Positions 49,713 through 63,062 of a DNA stretch of 64,000 bases are shown one piece after another (position 1 is the stretch's first letter; each line of letters begins with the position of its first letter). The notes under the pieces are model-generated. The model saw only the letters and a list, made by a program, of their open reading frames with translations. It did not search any database and was not told the DNA's origin. Source of the DNA: Bacteroidaceae bacterium (GTDB taxonomy: Bacteria > Bacteroidota > Bacteroidia > Bacteroidales > Bacteroidaceae); NCBI GenBank assembly GCA_017559845.1, contig JAFYQQ010000017.1, forward strand, positions 20,224-84,223, in the 5' to 3' direction. The translations under genes and the position numbers were made by a program.

Positions 49713-49786
49713 GGCCCCGTAGCTTAGCTGTATAGAGCGTCAGATTCCGGTTCTGAAGGTCAAGGGTTAGAATCCCTTCGGGGTCA
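49713..49786 (+). tRNA. tRNA-Arg (anticodon CCG)
   Basis: Hand-folded cloverleaf. Acceptor GGCCCCG/CGGGGTC (one G-T pair), D stem GCTT/GAGC, anticodon stem TCAGA/TCTGA with loop TTCCGGT, T arm AAGGG-TTAGAAT-CCCTT, discriminator A. 74 nt, CCA not encoded. Confidence 0.9.
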
Positions 49787-49787
49787 C

Positions 49788-49852
49788 AAAGAGAAGGACT
49801 CTCCATTTCGATGAAAATTTATTTTCAAGAGAAGAGGAGAGTCCTTTTCTTT
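49788..49852 (+). terminator. 17-bp-stem hairpin immediately 3' of the tRNA
   Basis: AAAGAGAAGGACTCTCC / GGAGAGTCCTTTTCTTT (one G-U pair), 31-nt loop. The U-rich 3' arm suggests a possible tRNA terminator. Confidence 0.45.
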
Positions 49853-49973
49853 GTTAGACCTTCGCCAATCCCGAAGGGGACACCTTCCCGTGGAAAGGGA
49901 TGGGAACAACAATGTTAATCCTAAAGAGATAAAGAAAACACCAAACAAATTTGCAAGTACGCAAATAAGTACT

Positions 49974-49981
49974 TATCTTTG
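49974..49981 (+). promoter_or_regulatory. candidate -7 element TATCTTTG (with TTTG about 22 nt upstream) for the phd/yoeB module
   Basis: TAnnTTTG match 22 nt upstream of ATG 50004. A -33-like TTTG lies at 49949-49952. Confidence 0.5.
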
Positions 49982-50003
49982 CGGTAGAATAAAAATAAAT
50001 TTT

Positions 50004-50264
50004 ATGAAAACAGCCAATTACACTGATTTTAGATCAAATCTGAAAGGTTACATGGATGCCGTCATTGATGATTGCGAAACCGTTATCATCAATCGGGGTA
50101 AAGACACAGGAGTTGTACTGATTTCGCTGGAAGAATATAATACCCTTAAAGAAACGGAATACATCATGTCCTCGCCAGAAACCATGGAAGCAATCCGCAA
50201 AGGAGACGAGGAAATAAAGAACGGCAAAGGTATCAAAGTGGAACTTGAGGATTTATGGAAATAA
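50004..50264 (+). CDS. Phd/YefM-family type II antitoxin
   Basis: ATG 50004 (MKTANYTDFRSNLKGYMDAVIDDCETVIINRGKD...LISLEEYNTLKETEYIMSSPE). Overlaps the toxin gene by 10 nt. Confidence 0.88.
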   Translation: MKTANYTDFRSNLKGYMDAVIDDCETVIINRGKDTGVVLISLEEYNTLKETEYIMSSPETMEAIRKGDEEIKNGKGIKVELEDLWK

Positions 50265-50527
50265 TCTTATTGGAACAAGCCCAAAAAGACCGTGATTACT
50301 GGAAGAAAACAGGAAACAAAGCCATAATGAAGCGGATAACTGCCTTATTAAAAGACATTATGGAACATCCGTATACAGGAATGGGAAAGCCAGAAGCTTT
50401 GCGATACGAATTGGCCGGCAAATGGTCAAGAAGGATCAATTCCGAACACCGCCTGATCTATTCTGTAAACGAGGACATAATCACCGTCTATGTATTTTCC
50501 ATGAGATACCATTATTCCAAGAAATAA
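50255..50527 (+). CDS. Txe/YoeB-family type II toxin (mRNA interferase)
   Basis: 90 aa. ...GMGKPEALRYELAGKWSRRINSEHRLIYSV..DIITVYVFSMRYHY matches the YoeB pattern. Confidence 0.88.
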   Translation: MEIILLEQAQKDRDYWKKTGNKAIMKRITALLKDIMEHPYTGMGKPEALRYELAGKWSRRINSEHRLIYSVNEDIITVYVFSMRYHYSKK

Positions 50528-50540
50528 TATGGGGCGAGCC

Positions 50541-50852
50541 TCATAAAATAGTCAGACTCACCCGACGACCAAGCCCTTCAAATATCCTGAACAAGGTTGT
50601 CAGCTGAACATCAGCCTTACCATTTTCCAAACGGGAAATATAAGTCTTTTTCGTGCCTATCTTTTCAGCCAGTTGTTCTTGCGTCAATCCAGCACGAATA
50701 CGTTCTTCTTTGAGCGTTTGGGCAAGGCAAAAAGCCTCAGTCTCTTTGTCAAATTCCTCGCGAGACGGTGTACCAATCTCTCCAAAATCCGCATTAAGCA
50801 ATTCGTCAAGATTGCTACAATTCATTATCGCATTTTCTCTCTTCTTATTCAT
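50541..50852 (-). CDS. XRE-family helix-turn-helix antitoxin (HigA-like)
   Basis: 103 aa. HTH RIRAGLTQEQLAEKIGTKKTYISRLENGK. Lies immediately downstream of a RelE/HigB-like gene (3-nt gap). Confidence 0.85.
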   Translation of the reverse strand: MNKKRENAIMNCSNLDELLNADFGEIGTPSREEFDKETEAFCLAQTLKEERIRAGLTQEQLAEKIGTKKTYISRLENGKADVQLTTLFRIFEGLGRRVSLTIL

Positions 50853-50855
50853 AAC

Positions 50856-51194
50856 TTATTCCTTATCTCTAAAATACTCCTTCATTAACATTTCTGCTTT
50901 TTCTATTTCCCCTAAAGGTGTCTTTTGACTTTTTTTCTGGAATCCATTAAAAAGGATGACCAACGAGCCCTTATCAAAGCAACAGAACACTCTGAATATA
51001 TCACCGCCAAATTCTATTCTGATTTCAAATAACCCTTTCTTTCCTTCAATGCTTCTGAGAATTGAACAAGGCAATCTATCAAGCGTTTGCAACCATATTA
51101 ATGTTTGAGCTATTTTTCGTCTCACTTTTTCAGACTGATCCACATAAAACTCATTAAAATAGTGCTTATAAAACCTTATCTCTCTTTTTGCCAT
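50856..51194 (-). CDS. RelE/ParE-superfamily toxin (HigB / Gp49-like)
   Basis: ATG at 51194 (MAKREIRFYKHYFNEFY...) preferred over TTG 51215. Motifs GLFEIRIEFGGDIFRVFCCFDKGSLVILFNGFQKKSQKTP. The toxin-first order is typical of HigBA. Confidence 0.8.
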   Translation of the reverse strand: MAKREIRFYKHYFNEFYVDQSEKVRRKIAQTLIWLQTLDRLPCSILRSIEGKKGLFEIRIEFGGDIFRVFCCFDKGSLVILFNGFQKKSQKTPLGEIEKAEMLMKEYFRDKE

Positions 51195-51419
51195 TTCAAT
51201 CAAATTACACTGCAAAGTTAACGAAATAGTTTACCTTTTCAAAATGTTTTGCATATTTTCTGCGTCTTTTATACTGAAAATGTTGTCCGCCAATCAAAAT
51301 AGGCTCTGTTTTACTCTTAAAAAAAGGAATATAACAAGCCCATTATTTATTAAGCCAAGGACTAATGAGCATTAAAGTTCTCTTCCATCACATAACCCCA
51401 GGCCATACTGTTGCAATGA

Positions 51420-53588: not shown

Positions 53589-54551
53589 ATGCCTAGATTA
53601 ACAACAAATGAGACTTCTCAACAACCCGTAAATGTAGAAGCATCCGCAATGAACGAAGAGAGCGTATCAAATGATATACCACAGTTAAACAACGAACGTA
53701 TGCCACAAGAATCAGAAACATACGAAACCAATAATATTTATATTGGAAGACTCGCAACTCCTAAAATAGAAAACGCCAAAGTTCCTGTAGTGGTTTTTTT
53801 CGGTCCTCCGTCAAGTGGAAAATCAATGATATTGGTTCGTCTGGCAAAGTTTTTACGTAATGAAGGTTATACCATACAGACAGACCCAACATTCCTTAAT
53901 ACAAAAAAGTATCAAGAAGACTGCCAAAAATTTAATGACAAATTAAATACAAATATTGCTTTAGATGGCTCTGTAGAATTCTTATTAGTCAATATCTATG
54001 ACAAAAATGGAAAAGAGATAGCCAAACTATTGGAAGCACCCGGTGAAGATTTTTACACTACCGACCCTGAAAAAATTAGAGCAGGTAAAAATCAGCGAGT
54101 AGAGCCATATTTGGCCACAATTATGACGAGCAACAATCCAAAATCATATGTTGTGCTGCTTGACTTGGATTCAGAAGTTTCATTCCGCAACGATTCTTAT
54201 CATAGGGATTCTTACGCACAAAGATTTTTGAACTATTTTTTACCTCCAATAAATCTGAAAAGGGACCGAATCATACTTCTTTATAACAAAATCGACAAAA
54301 CTCCGTTTGGGACAATCAACGAATGCCAAAATTCAAAGGAAGCTAAAGAAGATGCCAAAATATTTTACAAACAGATTTTTGCAAAATTAACAGGAGGATT
54401 CTTTAATTTGGAACAATTTGCATTTAAAACCTTCTGTACCGGAATGTTTTCATCCCATTTTGATGATTCTGGCGAAGAATACCAAATCTACAACGTTGCA
54501 AGCGACACCTATCCCCGTGAACTATGGCAAGAAATTGTAAAAAAATGGTAA
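53589..54551 (+). CDS. P-loop NTPase with Ras-like/TRAFAC GTPase motif order (candidate GTPase), cassette gene 2
   Basis: 320 aa. G1/Walker A VVVFFGPPSSGKS (aa 72-79). G3-like KLLEAPGED (aa 145-153, Glu in place of the usual Asp). G4 RIILLYNKIDK (NKxD, aa 233-236). About 55 low-complexity N-terminal residues. Confidence 0.6.
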   Translation: MPRLTTNETSQQPVNVEASAMNEESVSNDIPQLNNERMPQESETYETNNIYIGRLATPKIENAKVPVVVFFGPPSSGKSMILVRLAKFLRNEGYTIQTDPTFLNTKKYQEDCQKFNDKLNTNIALDGSVEFLLVNIYDKNGKEIAKLLEAPGEDFYTTDPEKIRAGKNQRVEPYLATIMTSNNPKSYVVLLDLDSEVSFRNDSYHRDSYAQRFLNYFLPPINLKRDRIILLYNKIDKTPFGTINECQNSKEAKEDAKIFYKQIFAKLTGGFFNLEQFAFKTFCTGMFSSHFDDSGEEYQIYNVASDTYPRELWQEIVKKW

Positions 54552-54555
54552 TATT

Positions 54556-56013
54556 ATGGAGATAATCATTCATGGCAAACCCAATGCGGGAAGTTCTAAA
54601 TCAACTTCCCCTTCCGACACACTATCCCAAAAAATCATAGAGGAATTCTTCAACAGAAGAGATGAAATCACTGATGAAGAAGCCTTAATTGTTGAAGCAA
54701 GAAATTGGAAAGGGAAATGGAATAGTGTCTACACATATAAAAAATCCAATTTGAGGGAAATAAGCGAAAATGTTGGCCGTTCAACTTATTTTGCCATATC
54801 CTTAATTATTCCGCAAAGTTATTGCTGTATGGTTAGCGAGGTTCTCTCTTTGCTGAAAAAAATGTACAATGAGTCTATTGTTGGTACTTATATATCAGAT
54901 AAAGGAAAATATATTGTACAAAACTTTGATGACTCTTTCGCTTTTGAAAAATTAGTAAAGAAAATCAAAGACTCTCATGTCAATCTGGAAGAAGACTTCG
55001 ATCAGAAATTTATTCCATGCCAAGAGTTCAACAATACTGTAAGATACAGCATCATGGATTGTGACTCAAAGGCTTTTGTGCAAACTCTTAGAAAAGTGGG
55101 AAGAATAGTAATCACAGAGACAGAAAAAACAAAAGACGAGAAGATTGCCAACACAAATGGTTATCTTGTCCAGAACCAGCAGCTACAGACAGAACTTTCT
55201 GATAAAAAAGCAGAAATTGAGCGGTTACATTCAAAGTTAAAGAAATGGGAAGATGATTTCTCTAAATCAACTTCAACAAATAACGGGAAAATAGAAGAAC
55301 TTAATAAAAGGATAAAAATTCTTTCCGCAGAAAAAGAAAAACTACAAGCTGAAAAGAATACACTTTGCGAATCCAATAAAGCTGTAAAGAATAAATTGGA
55401 TTCAATCGCATCTTTATTAGGGGTATCTGGAATTAACAAAGTTCCTGAAAACAAACAGCAATCAACCAGAAAACCTCATAACACTCTTATTTTTGGATGT
55501 TTATTAGTAAACACGCTGCTTGTATTAATACTTATCTTTTTACAAATATTTAATATAAAAGATTTCATAGCAGAAGGAACTTCTGTAGAAACTGGCAATT
55601 ATACAGAACTACAAAACAAAATAGAAAGTCTTGAAACAGCCATCAATGATAAGTTTGGGACTTTATACACATTAATATCAGCTAACAAACCAGCATCAAC
55701 TGAAGGCACAGGATCCTCATCTGAACCAGAGCAGTCCCCAAAAGACGTAGATTGTGAGCTACAAATCTTTCAAGATAATAGACCTGTAGAAATAAGTTCT
55801 ATAGATAGAGAAAAAACCATTTTGATTAATGTAAAAAAACATGATGGATATGATTTTTTCACATCAAACCTATCAGAGGAGAACGTAAACCTTTTAAAAA
55901 GAGGTGAACAATTTAACTTAGGGAAAAAGGAACAAGGGCAAGCCATTATAATAAATTACAGATCTAACGACAAGACAAAATTAAACGAAAAAAATAGTCT
56001 AACATTTAATTGA
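54556..56013 (+). CDS. bitopic coiled-coil membrane protein, cassette gene 3
   Basis: 485 aa. N-terminal globular part of about 190 aa, long heptad-rich segment (LQTELSDKKAEIERLHSKLKKWEDD...EELNKRIKILSAEKEKLQAEKNTL), single TM LIFGCLLVNTLLVLILIFLQIF, C-terminal domain of about 150 aa. Confidence 0.7.
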   Translation: MEIIIHGKPNAGSSKSTSPSDTLSQKIIEEFFNRRDEITDEEALIVEARNWKGKWNSVYTYKKSNLREISENVGRSTYFAISLIIPQSYCCMVSEVLSLLKKMYNESIVGTYISDKGKYIVQNFDDSFAFEKLVKKIKDSHVNLEEDFDQKFIPCQEFNNTVRYSIMDCDSKAFVQTLRKVGRIVITETEKTKDEKIANTNGYLVQNQQLQTELSDKKAEIERLHSKLKKWEDDFSKSTSTNNGKIEELNKRIKILSAEKEKLQAEKNTLCESNKAVKNKLDSIASLLGVSGINKVPENKQQSTRKPHNTLIFGCLLVNTLLVLILIFLQIFNIKDFIAEGTSVETGNYTELQNKIESLETAINDKFGTLYTLISANKPASTEGTGSSSEPEQSPKDVDCELQIFQDNRPVEISSIDREKTILINVKKHDGYDFFTSNLSEENVNLLKRGEQFNLGKKEQGQAIIINYRSNDKTKLNEKNSLTFN

Positions 56014-57673: not shown

Positions 57674-57731
57674 CTCGCATTGTGTTGTAAGTCTGATTTA
57701 AAGCATCATTTGATAACATTGGGGATTTGTG

Positions 57732-59822
57732 ATGAAGAAGATTATTTTTGTATTGCTTTATTGCCTATGCGTTGTCTGCAATAGTAACGCACAAAAAATA
57801 CCATCAATAGACAGAAGTCGGTTTGAAGTTTCCACAAAAAACATTTCATTTTCCGGTGATGGCGGTTCAAAAACAATTACCGTGAAAGCAGATCAGCCAT
57901 GGTCGGTTAAAGAATACCCAGCCTCATGGGCAAGCCTTACCAGATACAAAGAGAGGATTGAAGTAAAAGTAAACGGTAACAATTTTAATGAAAGCCGTAA
58001 TACTTCTTTCTCAATCACTTCTTCAGGAAAGACTATTACCATAGGTATCAAACAAGATGAAATGCCTATATTGGAAATCAATCCAAATAATGCTAATTTT
58101 ACCGCAACCGGTGGAACTCAAATATTTACTATAAAGTCCAATATTTCTTGGGAAATAGGAGAAAACACCAACTCTTGGATACACTTAGCAAAAAGTGGGA
58201 ATACACTTACTCTTAAAGCTGACTTAAATCCTCAATCAATAAATAGAGAAGGCGAATTTACTATATTGTCGAGAGATAAAAGCATTAGAATTTATGTTAT
58301 GCAATCTGGAATCTCTCCAAACTTTGATATATCCTCTACCTCTGCAAATTTTACGGCAAGTGGGGGAAGTAAAACGTTTACTGTAACTGCAACTGCGCCT
58401 TGGAACATTGAAACCGGGACAACAACATGGGGACATTTGACAATAAACGGAAATGAGCTAACACTAAAAGTTGATGCAAACAACCAAACATCTAATAGAG
58501 ATGATTATTTTACAATAAAATCTGGGGCTAAAAGCATAAGGGTTAATATAACCCAATTAGGCCTTACACCAAAATTTGGAATATCCTCTACGTCTGCTAA
58601 TTTTACGGCAGCTGGTGGTTCGCAAACATTTACTATTAATTCAAATTCATCATGGAGTATTGAAACACAACCAAAATCATGGGGACATTTGACCAAGAAT
58701 GGAAAAACGCTAACACTTAATGTAGACAGAAACAACCAGACTTCAAGCAGAGATGATTATTTCACCATTAGGTCAGGCAGCAAAAGGATTAGAGTTGATA
58801 TAACCCAGGCTGGTGCTTCGCCAAAATTTGACATATCCACTACATCGGCATATTTTGATGAAAATGGTGGAATAAAGAAGTTCACCATATCATCTAATCA
58901 AACATGGCACATAGATGTCAATACTACATCTTGGGGACGTTTATACAAAGATGGCAACACCCTCACTCTTAAGGTTGAAAAAAACACACAAACAGAATCC
59001 CGAAGAAATTTCTTCGTCATAAAATCAGAAGACAAGAAAATCCGGGTAGACATAACGCAGGCTGCGGGTTCTCCGTATTTACTTGTAAATGGGAGGGCGT
59101 CGGATACAGATGTAAACCTGAAACAATACGGAGGAACAGAAACAATATCCGTGAACACCAATGTTGAAAACTATGAAATTCTCAACAAACCGTCTTGGTG
59201 CTATATCACAGAAAAAACTCCTTCTGGTTTTGTATTGGGCTACATTAAAAACTCCAGCAGTTACCCAAGAAGCGGCAGTATGAGAGTTATTGCTGATGGC
59301 AAAATAGTGCAAGTTAATCTCAACCAAGAACCCAATTACCGTAAAATGCTCAGAAGGAGAAATGGCGGTTGGTTGAATATGGCCATTGGTTTCGAAGCAG
59401 GATACGGTAGCGCTTGGTATGCTAATAGCATTGTTGGATTAAGGTTGGGTAATTATAAGGATGTGCTTCAATTTGAAATGGGTATAACACCTGGTATTGC
59501 CGGTATTAACTATGGAGATGAATATGAAGATGACTATGCGTTCCATTTGCCAGTGTACAGTTCTTTGAAATTATCTACTAAAAGAGGAAAGTTTTACTTA
59601 AAACTTGGTGGTACATATAATGTCATCTATGACAAATATTACGAAGGCAAGTATTCATTGCGTGCAGGTTTTGGTTCGGCATGGAAACATTTTGAGTGGG
59701 ACTGGGCATCGTTTCAATTGAATGCGCCTACAGATTACTGGTATGGTTCCAAGTTTTCCGACATATTAAACGAGCCAGACATGATGTTCGGCATGAGAAT
59801 GGCATGGTATATTACACGGTAA
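57732..59822 (+). CDS. secreted protein with six BACON-like repeats and a C-terminal beta-barrel-like domain, cassette gene 6
   Basis: ATG 57732 preferred over GTG 57729. Signal peptide ...CNSNAQK. Six repeats of about 80-84 aa with the pattern F(T/S)AxGGxxTFT(V/I)xSNxxWxI...WGHLT.NG.TLTL.VD.N....R.DYFTI.SG.K.IRV.ITQ. The last 155 aa or so are rich in alternating aromatic/Gly residues (GFEAGYGSAWYANS...MRMAWYITR). Confidence 0.7.
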   Translation: MKKIIFVLLYCLCVVCNSNAQKIPSIDRSRFEVSTKNISFSGDGGSKTITVKADQPWSVKEYPASWASLTRYKERIEVKVNGNNFNESRNTSFSITSSGKTITIGIKQDEMPILEINPNNANFTATGGTQIFTIKSNISWEIGENTNSWIHLAKSGNTLTLKADLNPQSINREGEFTILSRDKSIRIYVMQSGISPNFDISSTSANFTASGGSKTFTVTATAPWNIETGTTTWGHLTINGNELTLKVDANNQTSNRDDYFTIKSGAKSIRVNITQLGLTPKFGISSTSANFTAAGGSQTFTINSNSSWSIETQPKSWGHLTKNGKTLTLNVDRNNQTSSRDDYFTIRSGSKRIRVDITQAGASPKFDISTTSAYFDENGGIKKFTISSNQTWHIDVNTTSWGRLYKDGNTLTLKVEKNTQTESRRNFFVIKSEDKKIRVDITQAAGSPYLLVNGRASDTDVNLKQYGGTETISVNTNVENYEILNKPSWCYITEKTPSGFVLGYIKNSSSYPRSGSMRVIADGKIVQVNLNQEPNYRKMLRRRNGGWLNMAIGFEAGYGSAWYANSIVGLRLGNYKDVLQFEMGITPGIAGINYGDEYEDDYAFHLPVYSSLKLSTKRGKFYLKLGGTYNVIYDKYYEGKYSLRAGFGSAWKHFEWDWASFQLNAPTDYWYGSKFSDILNEPDMMFGMRMAWYITR

Positions 59823-59854: not shown

Positions 59855-61318
59855 ATGATGATAAAAGTGCGAAGAATATTACTATTAGGCAGCATAGCCG
59901 CAATGATGGCTTGCACGCCAACAAAGCAATCCACTATAGATGAGGCTTTACAAACAAAGGTGGATTCTGTCTTACAAAACAAGATGGGCGAAATCAATGC
60001 CGTTTCCGGGCAAGTTATTGTAATGGAAGTGCAGACAGGTGAGATTAAGGCTATGGTGGGTGATGGCATTAGCCAGGAATCCGGGCTAACCCGTACTGCA
60101 TCTTTATTGGCAGCTTTAGAAACAGGCAGAGTGAAATTGTCTGATACGGTGGATGTTGGTGAGGGCGTTTACATGGTTCATGGCAAACCTTTATCTGACC
60201 ACAATTGGCGCATGGGCGGATTTGGCAAGATAACCACTTTGGAAGGTTTGATGCTTAATTCTTACATTGCACTCTACAAGAACATTGAAAGAGCATTTGA
60301 AGAAGAGAACACCTACTTTGGTATGCTTAACAAAATGTGTTACGGTCAACCAGAAAGCATTGAAAGGCTGGACAGTTTGAAAGCGTCTTACTTTGAAACT
60401 CCTGAGGACAGTAGTGCATTAGCATGGTCTTGCATTGGACATAATCAGCGTATTGCACCGATTCAAATGCTCACTTTCTATAATGCCATTGCCAATGGCG
60501 GCAAGATGGTGAAGCCCATGCTTTACAAAGGTGAAACGGAGGTTATCAATCCGCAAATAGCAAGTAAAGCCAACATTGACAGCCTACAAATGGCACTGGT
60601 TCATGTGGTAACGGAAGGTCTGGGCAAACCTGCACAATCCGAGAAAGTACAAGTTGCAGGATTTGGCGGCGGTTTTCCTATCTCTACAAAGGAAGACAAT
60701 TCAGAGGGCAGGATTAACACTGTATTTTCTGTGGGTTTTTGTGGTTACTTCCCAGCAGAAAACCCGAAGTTCTCTATTATTGTGAGCATGAATAAAAAGG
60801 GATATCCCGCAAATAGCTATTTAATGGCTGGCAGTGTTTTTAAGGAGATTGTGGATTATATGGTTGATTCGGGAGATACTACTGAAACAAATGATACAAC
60901 ATCATTAACAGATAGTCTTCCTAAAAAATCTTTGAATGACATTCGATTTGCTGGATGGACAGAGAAAGATTGGTTGGACAATGAATATATTAAGACACTA
61001 AGAAATCATATTGATGCTTGTCTTCAAGGCAAGATATCGGATTCGCAGTTTGAGAAATATAAGGATGAATTATCGGGAAAATTTATGATTGGTAGTATAG
61101 AACCTTATATTATGGGTGGAGTATTCATACAATTTTGTTTTATTGATAGACCCAATAAAATATTCTCAACTTGGGTGTATAGCAAAGTTGACGAGGAAAC
61201 AGAAACCGTCTACGATTATGAATGTAATGGACTTGAAATGGAAGAATATGAATCGGATTTGACCAAAGAAGAAATGATAAGAATCTCAGAAGAGCATCCT
61301 GAACAGAAACTTTGGTAA
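59855..61318 (+). CDS. PBP transpeptidase-like lipoprotein lacking all three catalytic motifs, with extra C-terminal domain, cassette gene 7
   Basis: Lipobox IAAMMACTP. PBP-like GQVIVMEVQTGEIKAMVG and IAPIQMLTFYNAIANGG. The expected SxxK position reads SGLTRTASLLAALE, SxN reads MLNSY, and KTG reads VAGFGGG. The C-terminal 130 aa or so are unrelated to PBPs. Confidence 0.65.
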   Translation: MMIKVRRILLLGSIAAMMACTPTKQSTIDEALQTKVDSVLQNKMGEINAVSGQVIVMEVQTGEIKAMVGDGISQESGLTRTASLLAALETGRVKLSDTVDVGEGVYMVHGKPLSDHNWRMGGFGKITTLEGLMLNSYIALYKNIERAFEEENTYFGMLNKMCYGQPESIERLDSLKASYFETPEDSSALAWSCIGHNQRIAPIQMLTFYNAIANGGKMVKPMLYKGETEVINPQIASKANIDSLQMALVHVVTEGLGKPAQSEKVQVAGFGGGFPISTKEDNSEGRINTVFSVGFCGYFPAENPKFSIIVSMNKKGYPANSYLMAGSVFKEIVDYMVDSGDTTETNDTTSLTDSLPKKSLNDIRFAGWTEKDWLDNEYIKTLRNHIDACLQGKISDSQFEKYKDELSGKFMIGSIEPYIMGGVFIQFCFIDRPNKIFSTWVYSKVDEETETVYDYECNGLEMEEYESDLTKEEMIRISEEHPEQKLW

Positions 61319-63011: not shown

Positions 63012-63062
63012 TGCCGAAAATCTCACAATTTATTTCCTGGAAAATGCCGAAAATCTCACAAT
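63012..63062. repeat. two perfect 18-nt direct repeats TGCCGAAAATCTCACAAT, 33 nt apart
   Basis: Copies at 63012-63029 and 63045-63062, about 170-220 nt upstream of the next gene. Confidence 0.85.

Follow-up and report, generated by a model that had tools for sequence, protein, structure and literature searches.

The DO-GTPases, TRAFAC GTPases whose Walker B motif includes a conserved glutamate, have been placed in predicted GTPase-centric conflict systems (Kaur et al. 2020, PMC7159879). YcjX of Escherichia coli has been treated as a DO-GTPase-family protein in a study that cites Tsai et al. 2019 for the YcjX structure (PMC11237479). In bacteria, partners are known for few small GTPase switches, the textbook case being MglA-MglB. 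This pair of a Ras-like GTPase and its Roadblock-domain GTPase activator is the established bacterial precedent for a small GTPase under a member of the profilin-longin-roadblock superfamily (PMC3521125, PMC4316618). Longin-type regulators are usually regarded as a speciality of eukaryotes and Asgard archaea. Here we analysed a window of 64,000 nucleotides from a Bacteroidaceae bacterium (NCBI GenBank assembly GCA_017559845.1, contig JAFYQQ010000017.1, positions 20,224 to 84,223 of the forward strand), in which the second of seven same-strand genes separated by tiny gaps (gene 2; Table 1) is predicted to encode a Ras-superfamily-type GTP-binding switch of a previously unstudied family from gut and rumen Bacteroidales. 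The gene 2 product is predicted to be a DO-GTPase/YcjX-like TRAFAC switch, and its partner set, which is built around two membrane proteins with predicted longin folds, is previously undescribed; our literature search found no description of the cassette.

The ATG at 53589 was taken as the start of gene 2 (stop at 54551), because the first methionine is invariant and an MPxIV N-terminus is conserved in close homologs. In an alignment of 31 relatives with 48-78% identity this start is followed by a variable, low-complexity stretch, and five blocks are invariant: GPPSSGKS, AKLLEAPGED (residues 145-154), LLYNKID, LLDLDS (190-195) and TFCTG (281-285). The AlphaFold2 model built from this alignment has a predicted local distance difference test score (pLDDT) of 76 overall, about 80-93 in the core and below 50 for residues 1-54. 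An earlier, sequence-only reading of the gene had proposed a disordered N-terminus, with which these values agree, and had described the order and spacing of GPPSSGKS (residues 72-79), EAPGE and NKID (residues 233-236) correctly.

The predicted secondary structure follows the Ras-like order. Strand 67-71 is followed by the P-loop and helix 78-91, the hairpin 133-137/143-149 runs into E149-A-P-G-E153, and the next strand (185-191) and helix (203-217) precede strand 227-233, which leads to NKID; helices 249-268 and strand 277-282 lead to C-T-G. An additional strand (95-98) and helix (106-119) are modelled between alpha1 and beta2, and an additional beta-hairpin before the final helix at the C-terminus. 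The F282-C-T-G285 motif is G5-like in its position and may resemble the TCAT-type G5 of Arf and G-alpha. Candidates for the switch-I threonine of G2 are T121, which is nearly invariant in close relatives, and S/T128, which directly precedes beta2 and is a threonine in the family consensus; the region is modelled with low confidence (pLDDT 58 for the block). The distance between G3 and G4 is 84 residues, compared with 59 in Ras (D57 to N116), so the gap of about 80 residues that had been described as longer than in small GTPases is real.

Gene 2 is single-copy in its genome and has 232 close homologs; an exhaustive HMMER scan of 1.84 billion representatives yielded 371 representative clusters. 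We counted motif conservation over 139 divergent representatives clustered at 50% identity. G77 and K78 are present in all 139, G152 in 136 and E153 in 127, and position 149 is Glu in 118 members and Asp in 16. For G4 the counts are 120/139 (N233), 132/139 (K234) and 135/139 (D236), and F282 and G285 are at least 90% conserved. Given this conservation across divergent sequences, the motifs are not chance matches.

A Foldseek search of the PDB with the gene 2 model returned TRAFAC GTPases for all of its top 50 matches, including RagD, Rab3B, Nog1, YsxC/EngB, MglA, atlastin, EF-Tu, Arl5, SRbeta and G-alpha. The independent aligner VIA-align also gave only TRAFAC GTPases among its top 50, with Arl2 (9edr_G; Z-score 14.5, 172 residues at 3.2 Å), RagA-like and RagD chains (both Z 13.8; 171 and 173 residues), SRbeta (Z 13.5, 171 residues), EngB (Z 13.5, 172 residues), YcjX (Z 13.4), Arf6 (Z 13.2, 159 residues) and Sar1 (Z 13.0, 176 residues). 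The alignment to YcjX, with 226 residues, is the longest of any PDB chain. Of the features of TRAFAC GTPases in the sense of Leipe et al. 2002, gene 2 has a Walker A motif, a G3 after an antiparallel hairpin and a G4 of the form NKxD. On the basis of the model and these matches, the gene 2 product very probably has a TRAFAC GTPase fold and binds guanine nucleotides, and the Ras-like assignment made earlier from the motifs holds up in view of the structure searches and the family-wide constraint on NKxD.

Scans of gene 2 against Pfam, NCBIfam, PHROGs, PADLOC and PDB sequences placed it in no curated family; these libraries recognise the neighbourhood of Walker A only, and no additional domain was found in the protein, in line with the claim that it lacks a fused effector domain. 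SRPRB (Pfam) gave sub-threshold matches in 24 of 89 relatives (best E-value 5.4e-4), Gtr1_RagA (Pfam) a match below threshold in one relative (E 0.039), and TIGR00231 (small_GTP) 13.2 bits against a cut-off of 42.5. KTI12, 6PF2K, AAA_22, AAA_28, Csx3, RFC and SRP54/FtsY were tried as families for gene 2 and rejected, since their matches span only 20-60 P-loop residues.

If the hits to KTI12, 6PF2K, AAA_22, RFC and similar families were taken at face value, the protein might be a kinase-like or AAA-type ATPase with a coincidental NKID, an outcome that the sequence-only reading had named as one that would refute it. These hits stay within the Walker A region, whereas over the full domain the structure matches TRAFAC GTPases exclusively, and NKxD is kept in 86-97% of the 139 divergent members at the strand end expected for G4. 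This outcome did not arise in the profile hidden Markov model (HMM) and structure comparisons, and we consider it extremely improbable.

Nucleotide binding and hydrolysis are predictions for the whole family, and it weighs against a functional switch that a Walker B motif with Glu where Asp is canonical could handle Mg2+ differently or be changed in hydrolysis. Pseudo-GTPases exist among eukaryotic small GTPases, and with the Walker B Asp replaced in 118 of the 139 members, gene 2 might encode a nucleotide-locked pseudo-switch in which the substitution cripples hydrolysis and leaves a constitutively GTP-bound scaffold. All nucleotide-contacting motifs are strongly constrained, though, including the Glu at the position of the catalytic Gln61, and 16 members keep the Asp. 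YcjX is among the relatives with a D-x-P-G-E motif, and the title of its crystal-structure entry gives GDP as bound. A locked pseudo-switch is thus very improbable.

The G3 motif links gene 2 to the DO-GTPases and YcjX. For comparison we took genuine DO-GTPase2 genes of three Bacteroidota genomes, the paralogs of these genes, and E. coli ycjX. G3 reads DAPGEWF in DO-GTPase2, DYAGEQ in the paralog and DYPGEW in YcjX, and EAPGE[D/x][F/Y] in the gene 2 family; an x-x-P-G-E-aromatic grammar is common to the gene 2 family, DO-GTPase2 and YcjX. E153 aligns with the Glu of DAPGE, DYAGE and DYPGE. From this motif comparison, the Glu directly after the G3 glycine, at the position of Ras Gln61, therefore appears to be a hallmark common with YcjX and the DO-GTPases. 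Glu149 looks like a conservative, family-specific substitute for the Walker B Asp, and E153 seems the more telling residue of the two; the glutamate by which the Walker B motif of DO-GTPases is recognised is found in the family, counting E153 as well as E149. We therefore read x-x-P-G-E as the mark of a lineage and not as a defect. This accounts for the G3 that had been called atypical: the Glu at position 149 is real, but it is not peculiar to one protein.

Predicted structures and embeddings point in the same direction. In an ESM Atlas feature search all named neighbours of gene 2 beyond its own clusters were DO-GTPase1 or DO-GTPase2, with scores of 0.93-0.95. In the Atlas fold search DO-GTPase clusters aligned with template-modelling scores of 0.56-0.66 over 202-269 residues, compared with about 170 residues for Ras-like PDB chains, so structural elements beyond the Ras core are common to the two families; the greater length agrees with YcjX giving the longest PDB alignment. 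By these two measures DO-GTPases appear to be the nearest known kind to gene 2. Sub-threshold DO-GTPase2 Pfam matches occur in 24 of 89 relatives and are near full-length in divergent members, as in relative P0197, of which residues 61-251 match model positions 3-193 of 226 with 20.1 bits (cut-off 27).

YcjX (PDB 6nz4) has the same motif grammar as gene 2 (GxxxxGKT, D-Y-P-G-E-W, TKAD), and both are encoded beside an inner-membrane protein. In contrast to the 320 residues of gene 2, YcjX has 465 residues with large insertions, and its gene is paired with that of a DUF697 protein in a unit of two that includes neither longin proteins nor a protease. Unlike the NKxD of the gene 2 family, the G4 of DO-GTPase2, which aligns with NKID, is SKSD. 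DO-GTPase loci and the present cassette both lie in mobile surroundings that abound in transmembrane proteins, peptidases and variable modules and in extracytoplasmic domains of the wall- or ligand-binding type. DO-GTPase systems often have a second paralogous GTPase or N-terminal zinc ribbons (ZnR), whereas the cassette has a single GTPase, with no zinc ribbon in gene 2 and no second paralogous GTPase. Its partners also differ, comprising two longin-transmembrane proteins, a retropepsin lipoprotein and a polytopic membrane protein; none of these partners is described in Kaur et al. 2020 (PMC7159879), where longin, roadblock, retropepsin and MORN are nowhere mentioned.

Several results weigh against membership of the DO-GTPase clade. 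No member of the gene 2 family reaches the Pfam gathering thresholds of DO-GTPase1 (PF19975) or DO-GTPase2 (PF19993), the best DO-GTPase2 score being 22.2 bits (relative P0260); gene 2 itself (P0001) has no DO-GTPase match in Pfam, and its genome has no PF19993 match. In hhalign, gene 2 scores 61-85% against three-sequence DO-GTPase templates but falls to 7.8% against a 60-sequence DO-GTPase2 profile, no better than an EngB control, and to 0.4% against E. coli YcjX, so that sequence kinship is weak. DO-GTPase2 and YcjX themselves reach no more than 5% when compared in this way, so the test is insensitive, and we count it as proof neither for nor against kinship. Of the partners that define DO-GTPase systems, GAP1 was not matched in any cassette gene (Pfam, E <= 0.1), and GASH, GAAD and FNIII had no Pfam matches in the cassette. 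The N-terminal modules of genes 3 and 5 scored 0.1% in hhalign against GAP1-N1 from three Bacteroidota DO-GTPase operons, a thin template. Because the scores are sub-threshold, the hhalign values collapse and the defining partners were not found, we file the gene 2 family as a new family beside the DO-GTPase/YcjX clade and not as a member; it is a distant branch of that clade or a sister to it.

Genuine DO-GTPase operons (L009-L011; G188, G055, G135) encode a protein of about 420 residues, a ZnR-DO-GTPase2 of 323-327 residues, a paralog of 275-285 residues and a GAP1-like protein. The last begins MSKIVIHQAYYGE, which is superficially like the hhhhHG start of the longin modules described below; we found no profile similarity between these GAP1-like proteins and the longin modules.

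ZnR and TIR fusions, which belong to the vocabulary of DO-GTPase systems (Kaur et al. 2020, PMC7159879) and are typical of them, also occur in some relatives of gene 2. Five divergent relatives (P0180, P0215, P0237, P0260 and P0263) carry N-terminal TIR_2 fusions (E 3e-10 to 1e-24), and two of these also have N-terminal CxxC zinc-ribbon-like motifs; Pfam Zn_Ribbon_1 matches P0260 only, below the cut-off. No longin or gene 1 homologs were detected beside TIR-fused relatives at loci L120 and L121, where the contigs are short, and these relatives look like a separate TIR-GTPase architecture.

Gene 2 belongs to a conserved five-gene, membrane-spanning cassette. We established this by context look-ups and iterated HMM searches over 80 genomic loci, in which the order gene 1, GTPase, gene 3, gene 4, gene 5 predominates and persists at 35% identity. 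Homologs of gene 1 lie directly upstream of the GTPase in 78 of the loci, the longin-transmembrane proteins (genes 3 and 5, as two matches per locus) are present in 78, and gene 4 in 64; missing genes are mostly at contig ends. The GTPase had been called stand-alone, which is right in that it is a separate polypeptide and wrong in that it is one gene of five. It is indeed encoded between membrane proteins, gene 1 having three N-terminal transmembrane segments and one at the C-terminus and gene 3 having one, and the earlier idea that it acts as a switch subunit between them is compatible with the strictly conserved gene neighbourhood.

The N-terminal modules of genes 3 and 5, compared as segments without coiled coils and transmembrane parts, are homologous (hhalign 97.9%, E 5.8e-13, 161 columns). 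Neither has a sequence-family match in Pfam. The AlphaFold2 model of the gene 3 module (pLDDT 91, predicted template-modelling score 0.88) matches longin domains in about 44 of 50 VIA-align rows. These comprise an Asgard Roadblock-Longin protein (8yqg_B; Z 11.7, 137 residues), Lst4 (Z 11.6, 130 residues), TRAPPC (Z 10.5, 121 residues), SMCR8 (Z 10.1, 131 residues), FLCN (Z 10.0, 135 residues) and FNIP2 (Z 9.9, 132 residues), and lower down Sec22, VAMP7, sedlin, AP sigma/mu, Nprl, Mon1-Ccz1, DENND1A and SRX; roadblock domains score lower (Z about 6.5-6.7). Foldseek shows the longin theme too, with probabilities of up to 0.99 but E-values of only 0.01-0.05. The gene 3 module is thus predicted to have a longin fold. 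Because genes 3 and 5 have no signal peptide and a single transmembrane segment after a long N-terminal part, a cytoplasmic location is expected for their longin heads.

It is established that Rag, Rab, Arf-like and SRbeta GTPases, as well as MglA, use longin and roadblock domains as platforms (PMC3747258, PMC3521125); these are the same GTPases that best match gene 2. Arf/Arl/Sar1, SRbeta and Rag/Gtr are the best solved-structure matches for its G domain, and the longin partners of such GTPases (GATOR1 Nprl2/3, FLCN-FNIP/Lst4, Mon1-Ccz1, TRAPP and the SRX domain of SRalpha) are the best matches for the module of genes 3 and 5. That each GTPase is accompanied by a pair of paralogous longin proteins is reminiscent of heterodimeric longin regulators. 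The likeness has limits: sequence identity to gene 2 is only 10-16% and there is no Pfam membership, the eukaryotic G3 is DxxGQ or DxGGQ instead of E-x-P-G-E, and gene 2 has the additional strand and helix (residues 95-119) and C-terminal beta-hairpin. As a further difference, the longin modules of the cassette are anchored at the inner membrane, with coiled coils and periplasmic domains after them. MglA is among the Foldseek matches of gene 2, whereas MglB is a small soluble roadblock homodimer and the cassette partners are membrane-anchored and closer to longin domains (Z 11.7) than to roadblock domains; the context of MglA-MglB is motility and polarity, that of gene 2 a mobile envelope cassette.

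Genome comparison ties the longin module to the GTPase. Among 41 related genomes the module occurs in exactly four, the same four that have the GTPase, and is adjacent to it each time; in the genome of the window it is found in genes 3 and 5 only. By analogy with the platforms named above, we lean slightly towards gene 2 being a switch subunit that acts on the longin modules. It counts against this proposal that the contact is inferred from fold analogy, gene linkage and co-occurrence only.

The other conserved parts span the envelope. Gene 1 has no known family in Pfam or PDB profile searches, and its intramembrane polar residues are invariant (S23, T27 and S30 in the first transmembrane segment; W88, S91, T94, N95 and H97 in the third; D351 in the last), which may suggest an ion-conducting or catalytic membrane core. 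Gene 1 is a candidate effector of the cassette. Gene 4 matches Asp_protease_2 with 26.0 bits (Pfam cut-off 24.3), and its catalytic D-T/S-G motif is conserved in homologs (D 57/57, T/S 56/57, G 57/57), with a lipobox in at least 38 of the 57.

The GTPase is the best conserved part among the closest cassettes, with 61-76% identity, followed by gene 1 (52-73%), gene 4 (44-65%) and the longin modules (28-61%). Variation is much greater in the periplasmic tails: in these same cassettes the gene 3 tail has only 19-30% identity, and the gene 5 tail is either kept or wholly replaced, with lengths of 2-263 residues. In the window, the gene 5 tail has MORN-like repeats that are seen by eye only and have no Pfam match. 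Several loci have three to five tandem longin-transmembrane paralogs, or an additional copy upstream of gene 1 (L099, L107, L115, L074, L091, L093), which points to expansion of a sensor-like component.

The cassette is rare, patchy and mobile. The gene 2 family is nearly confined to gut and rumen Bacteroidales, and the GTPase is present in 3 of 24 other species of the genus, in none of 16 other sampled families of the order and in 0 of 300 in a class-wide sample; these figures describe samples, in which many genomes are incomplete. The cassette occurs in cultured gut species of human and mouse, namely Bacteroides acidifaciens (DSM 15896, L059), Parabacteroides distasonis (NM39_I3, L102), Bacteroides hominis (CLA-AA-H207, L108) and Xylanibacter caecicola (L043). 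In the window it sits on a low-GC island (0.34-0.39 at 50 to 62 kb, down from about 0.52) that starts right after tRNA-Arg(CCG), and the interval separating this tRNA from the cassette holds two toxin-antitoxin-like pairs. No convincing tRNA-derived direct repeat or attachment site was found at the far edge of the island, and no integrase on it.

We hypothesize that the soluble GTPase docks in the cytoplasm on the longin heads of genes 3 and 5, which probably heterodimerise and are fixed to the inner membrane through coiled-coil stalks. Docking would resemble that of Rag, Rab, Arf and SRbeta GTPases on longin or roadblock platforms that serve as the GTPase-activating protein (GAP), guanine-nucleotide exchange factor (GEF) or receptor. 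The fast-evolving periplasmic tails might sense the state of the envelope or an invader, and this signal would alter the nucleotide state of the GTPase, with output via gene 4, the retropepsin lipoprotein of the periplasm, and via the polytopic gene 1 product in the membrane. Taken as a whole, with a TRAFAC switch, longin docking, trans-envelope signalling and surveillance or defence, this is the best explanation we can offer, and its chances are a little better than even.

Within this scheme, envelope-level surveillance or defence against phage or other attack is the most likely role of the cassette, a function we infer; it is favoured because of the constant core with variable ends, the rarity and patchiness, the mobility and the TIR-fused relatives. 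Three observations speak against it, the lack of PADLOC matches, the flanking of several related loci by housekeeping genes and the failure to find an integrase or attachment repeat on the island, and taken on its own a role in defence or conflict falls somewhat short of an even chance. A further version would make the cassette the bacterial counterpart of the unit of longin heterodimer and Rag/Arf-like GTPase known from GATOR1, FLCN-FNIP and Mon1-Ccz1, in which the tethered longins read the periplasm through their hypervariable tails and act as GAP or GEF for a dedicated YcjX/DO-type GTPase, which would then trigger an immune response by the protease and the membrane protein. This version is drawn by analogy and seems to us rather unlikely. 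If it were true, the cassette would represent a novel class of defence system that is trans-envelope and GTPase-gated, and bacteria would have true longin-type GTPase platforms.

The housekeeping neighbours of several loci would fit the main rival, a YcjX-like role in membrane stress. Here the same molecule would serve envelope-stress maintenance in a module like YcjX-YcjF, with the GTPase remodelling or stabilising the inner membrane and the protease performing quality control. Judged by aligned length, no solved protein is structurally closer to gene 2 than YcjX, E. coli YcjX is paired with the inner-membrane protein YcjF near pspFABCDE, and a study of the phage shock protein (PSP) system ties the DO-GTPase family to membrane-related stress (PMC11237479). 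A maintenance function would not be expected in only 3 of 24 congeners and 0 of 300 in the class sample, and it leaves the low-GC tRNA island with its toxin-antitoxin modules, the swapped periplasmic tails and the TIR-fused relatives unexplained. We regard this role as improbable, though it is the strongest competitor to surveillance or defence.

The span of the parts from cytoplasm and inner membrane to periplasmic lipoprotein and outer-membrane protein, and the beta-barrel outer-membrane protein (OMP) or BACON protein that follows gene 5 in some loci, would also suit a GTPase that controls assembly or export of a surface structure, such as BACON/beta-barrel OMP display or vesicle formation, in the manner of trafficking GTPases. 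That outer-membrane component varies among loci and is frequently missing, the cassette has no linked secretion or assembly ATPase, pilin or glycosyltransferase, and it is distributed too sparsely to serve a core surface structure, all of which makes an export role quite improbable.

The trans-envelope switch favoured here would be of interest beyond this locus. The cassette is a compact five-gene system in cultured gut species, in which a Rag/Arf-like G domain is genetically locked to two predicted longin-fold proteins. If the proposed wiring is true, it offers a tractable bacterial model of longin-GTPase regulation and a concrete, testable member of DO-GTPase-like conflict systems, which have so far been predicted only. 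The accessory genome of dominant gut bacteria would also be enriched by a candidate module for defence at the envelope.

Table 1. Positions of the cassette genes, of the motifs and modules within them and of neighbouring features in the window.
Feature	Positions	Strand	Details
Gene 2, predicted TRAFAC-class GTPase, 320 aa	53589..54551	+	Open reading frame and AlphaFold2 model; disordered tail aa 1-54, G domain aa 55-320
G1 / Walker A, GPPSSGKS, aa 72-79	53802..53825	+	After strand 67-71 in model
G3 / Walker B, E149-A-P-G152-E153	54033..54047	+	Terminates beta-hairpin 133-137/143-149
G4, NKID, aa 233-236, predicted guanine-specificity motif	54285..54296	+	Terminates strand 227-233
G5-like, F282-C-T-G285	54432..54443	+	After strand 277-282; model position matches G5
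Gene 1, polytopic membrane protein, 363 aa	52476..53567	+	3 N-terminal transmembrane segments, ~240-aa loop, 1 C-terminal transmembrane segment
Gene 3, bitopic, 485 aa	54556..56013	+	Predicted longin module, coiled coil, transmembrane segment aa 311-329, periplasmic tail 156 aa
Gene 3, predicted longin-fold cytoplasmic module, aa 1 to ~165	54556-55050	+	AlphaFold2 model
Gene 4, retropepsin-type aspartic protease, 181 aa	56010..56555	+	Lipoprotein signal; Pfam Asp_protease_2
Gene 5, bitopic paralog of gene 3, 372 aa	56555..57673	+	Longin-type N-module, short coiled coil, transmembrane segment aa 230-248
Gene 6, BACON repeats and C-terminal beta-barrel-like region	57729..59822	+	Pfam BACON E 1e-18, BACON_2 E 8e-16
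Gene 7, penicillin-binding protein (PBP)-transpeptidase-like lipoprotein	59855..61318	+	Weak NCBIfam PBP matches, far under cut-offs
tRNA-Arg(CCG)	49713..49787	+	ARAGORN; left edge of low-GC island
Two toxin-antitoxin-like pairs	49851-51215	+ (first), - (second)	Between tRNA and cassette
Exact 18-nt direct repeat	63012-63062		Just past right edge of island

Two further genes follow the conserved five in the window. Gene 6 is a variable accessory gene: its BACON type occurs after gene 5 in a minority of loci, and other loci have an OMP_b-brl_2 protein there. Gene 7, with homologs in 0 of the 80 related loci, is a local add-on outside the conserved cassette.

Several related loci (L050, L055, L065, L070, L079, L081, L086) lie on short contigs of metagenome bins that have been assigned to Ruminococcus, Oscillospiraceae, Lachnospiraceae, Waltera or Akkermansia; for these non-Bacteroidota labels mis-binning seems likelier than true transfer outside Bacteroidota. 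Of the two toxin-antitoxin-like pairs in the window, the first consists of a Phd/YefM antitoxin and a small toxin and the second of HigA-like and HigB-like proteins. The direct repeat beyond the right edge of the island has the sequence TGCCGAAAATCTCACAAT, with a spacing of 33 nt.

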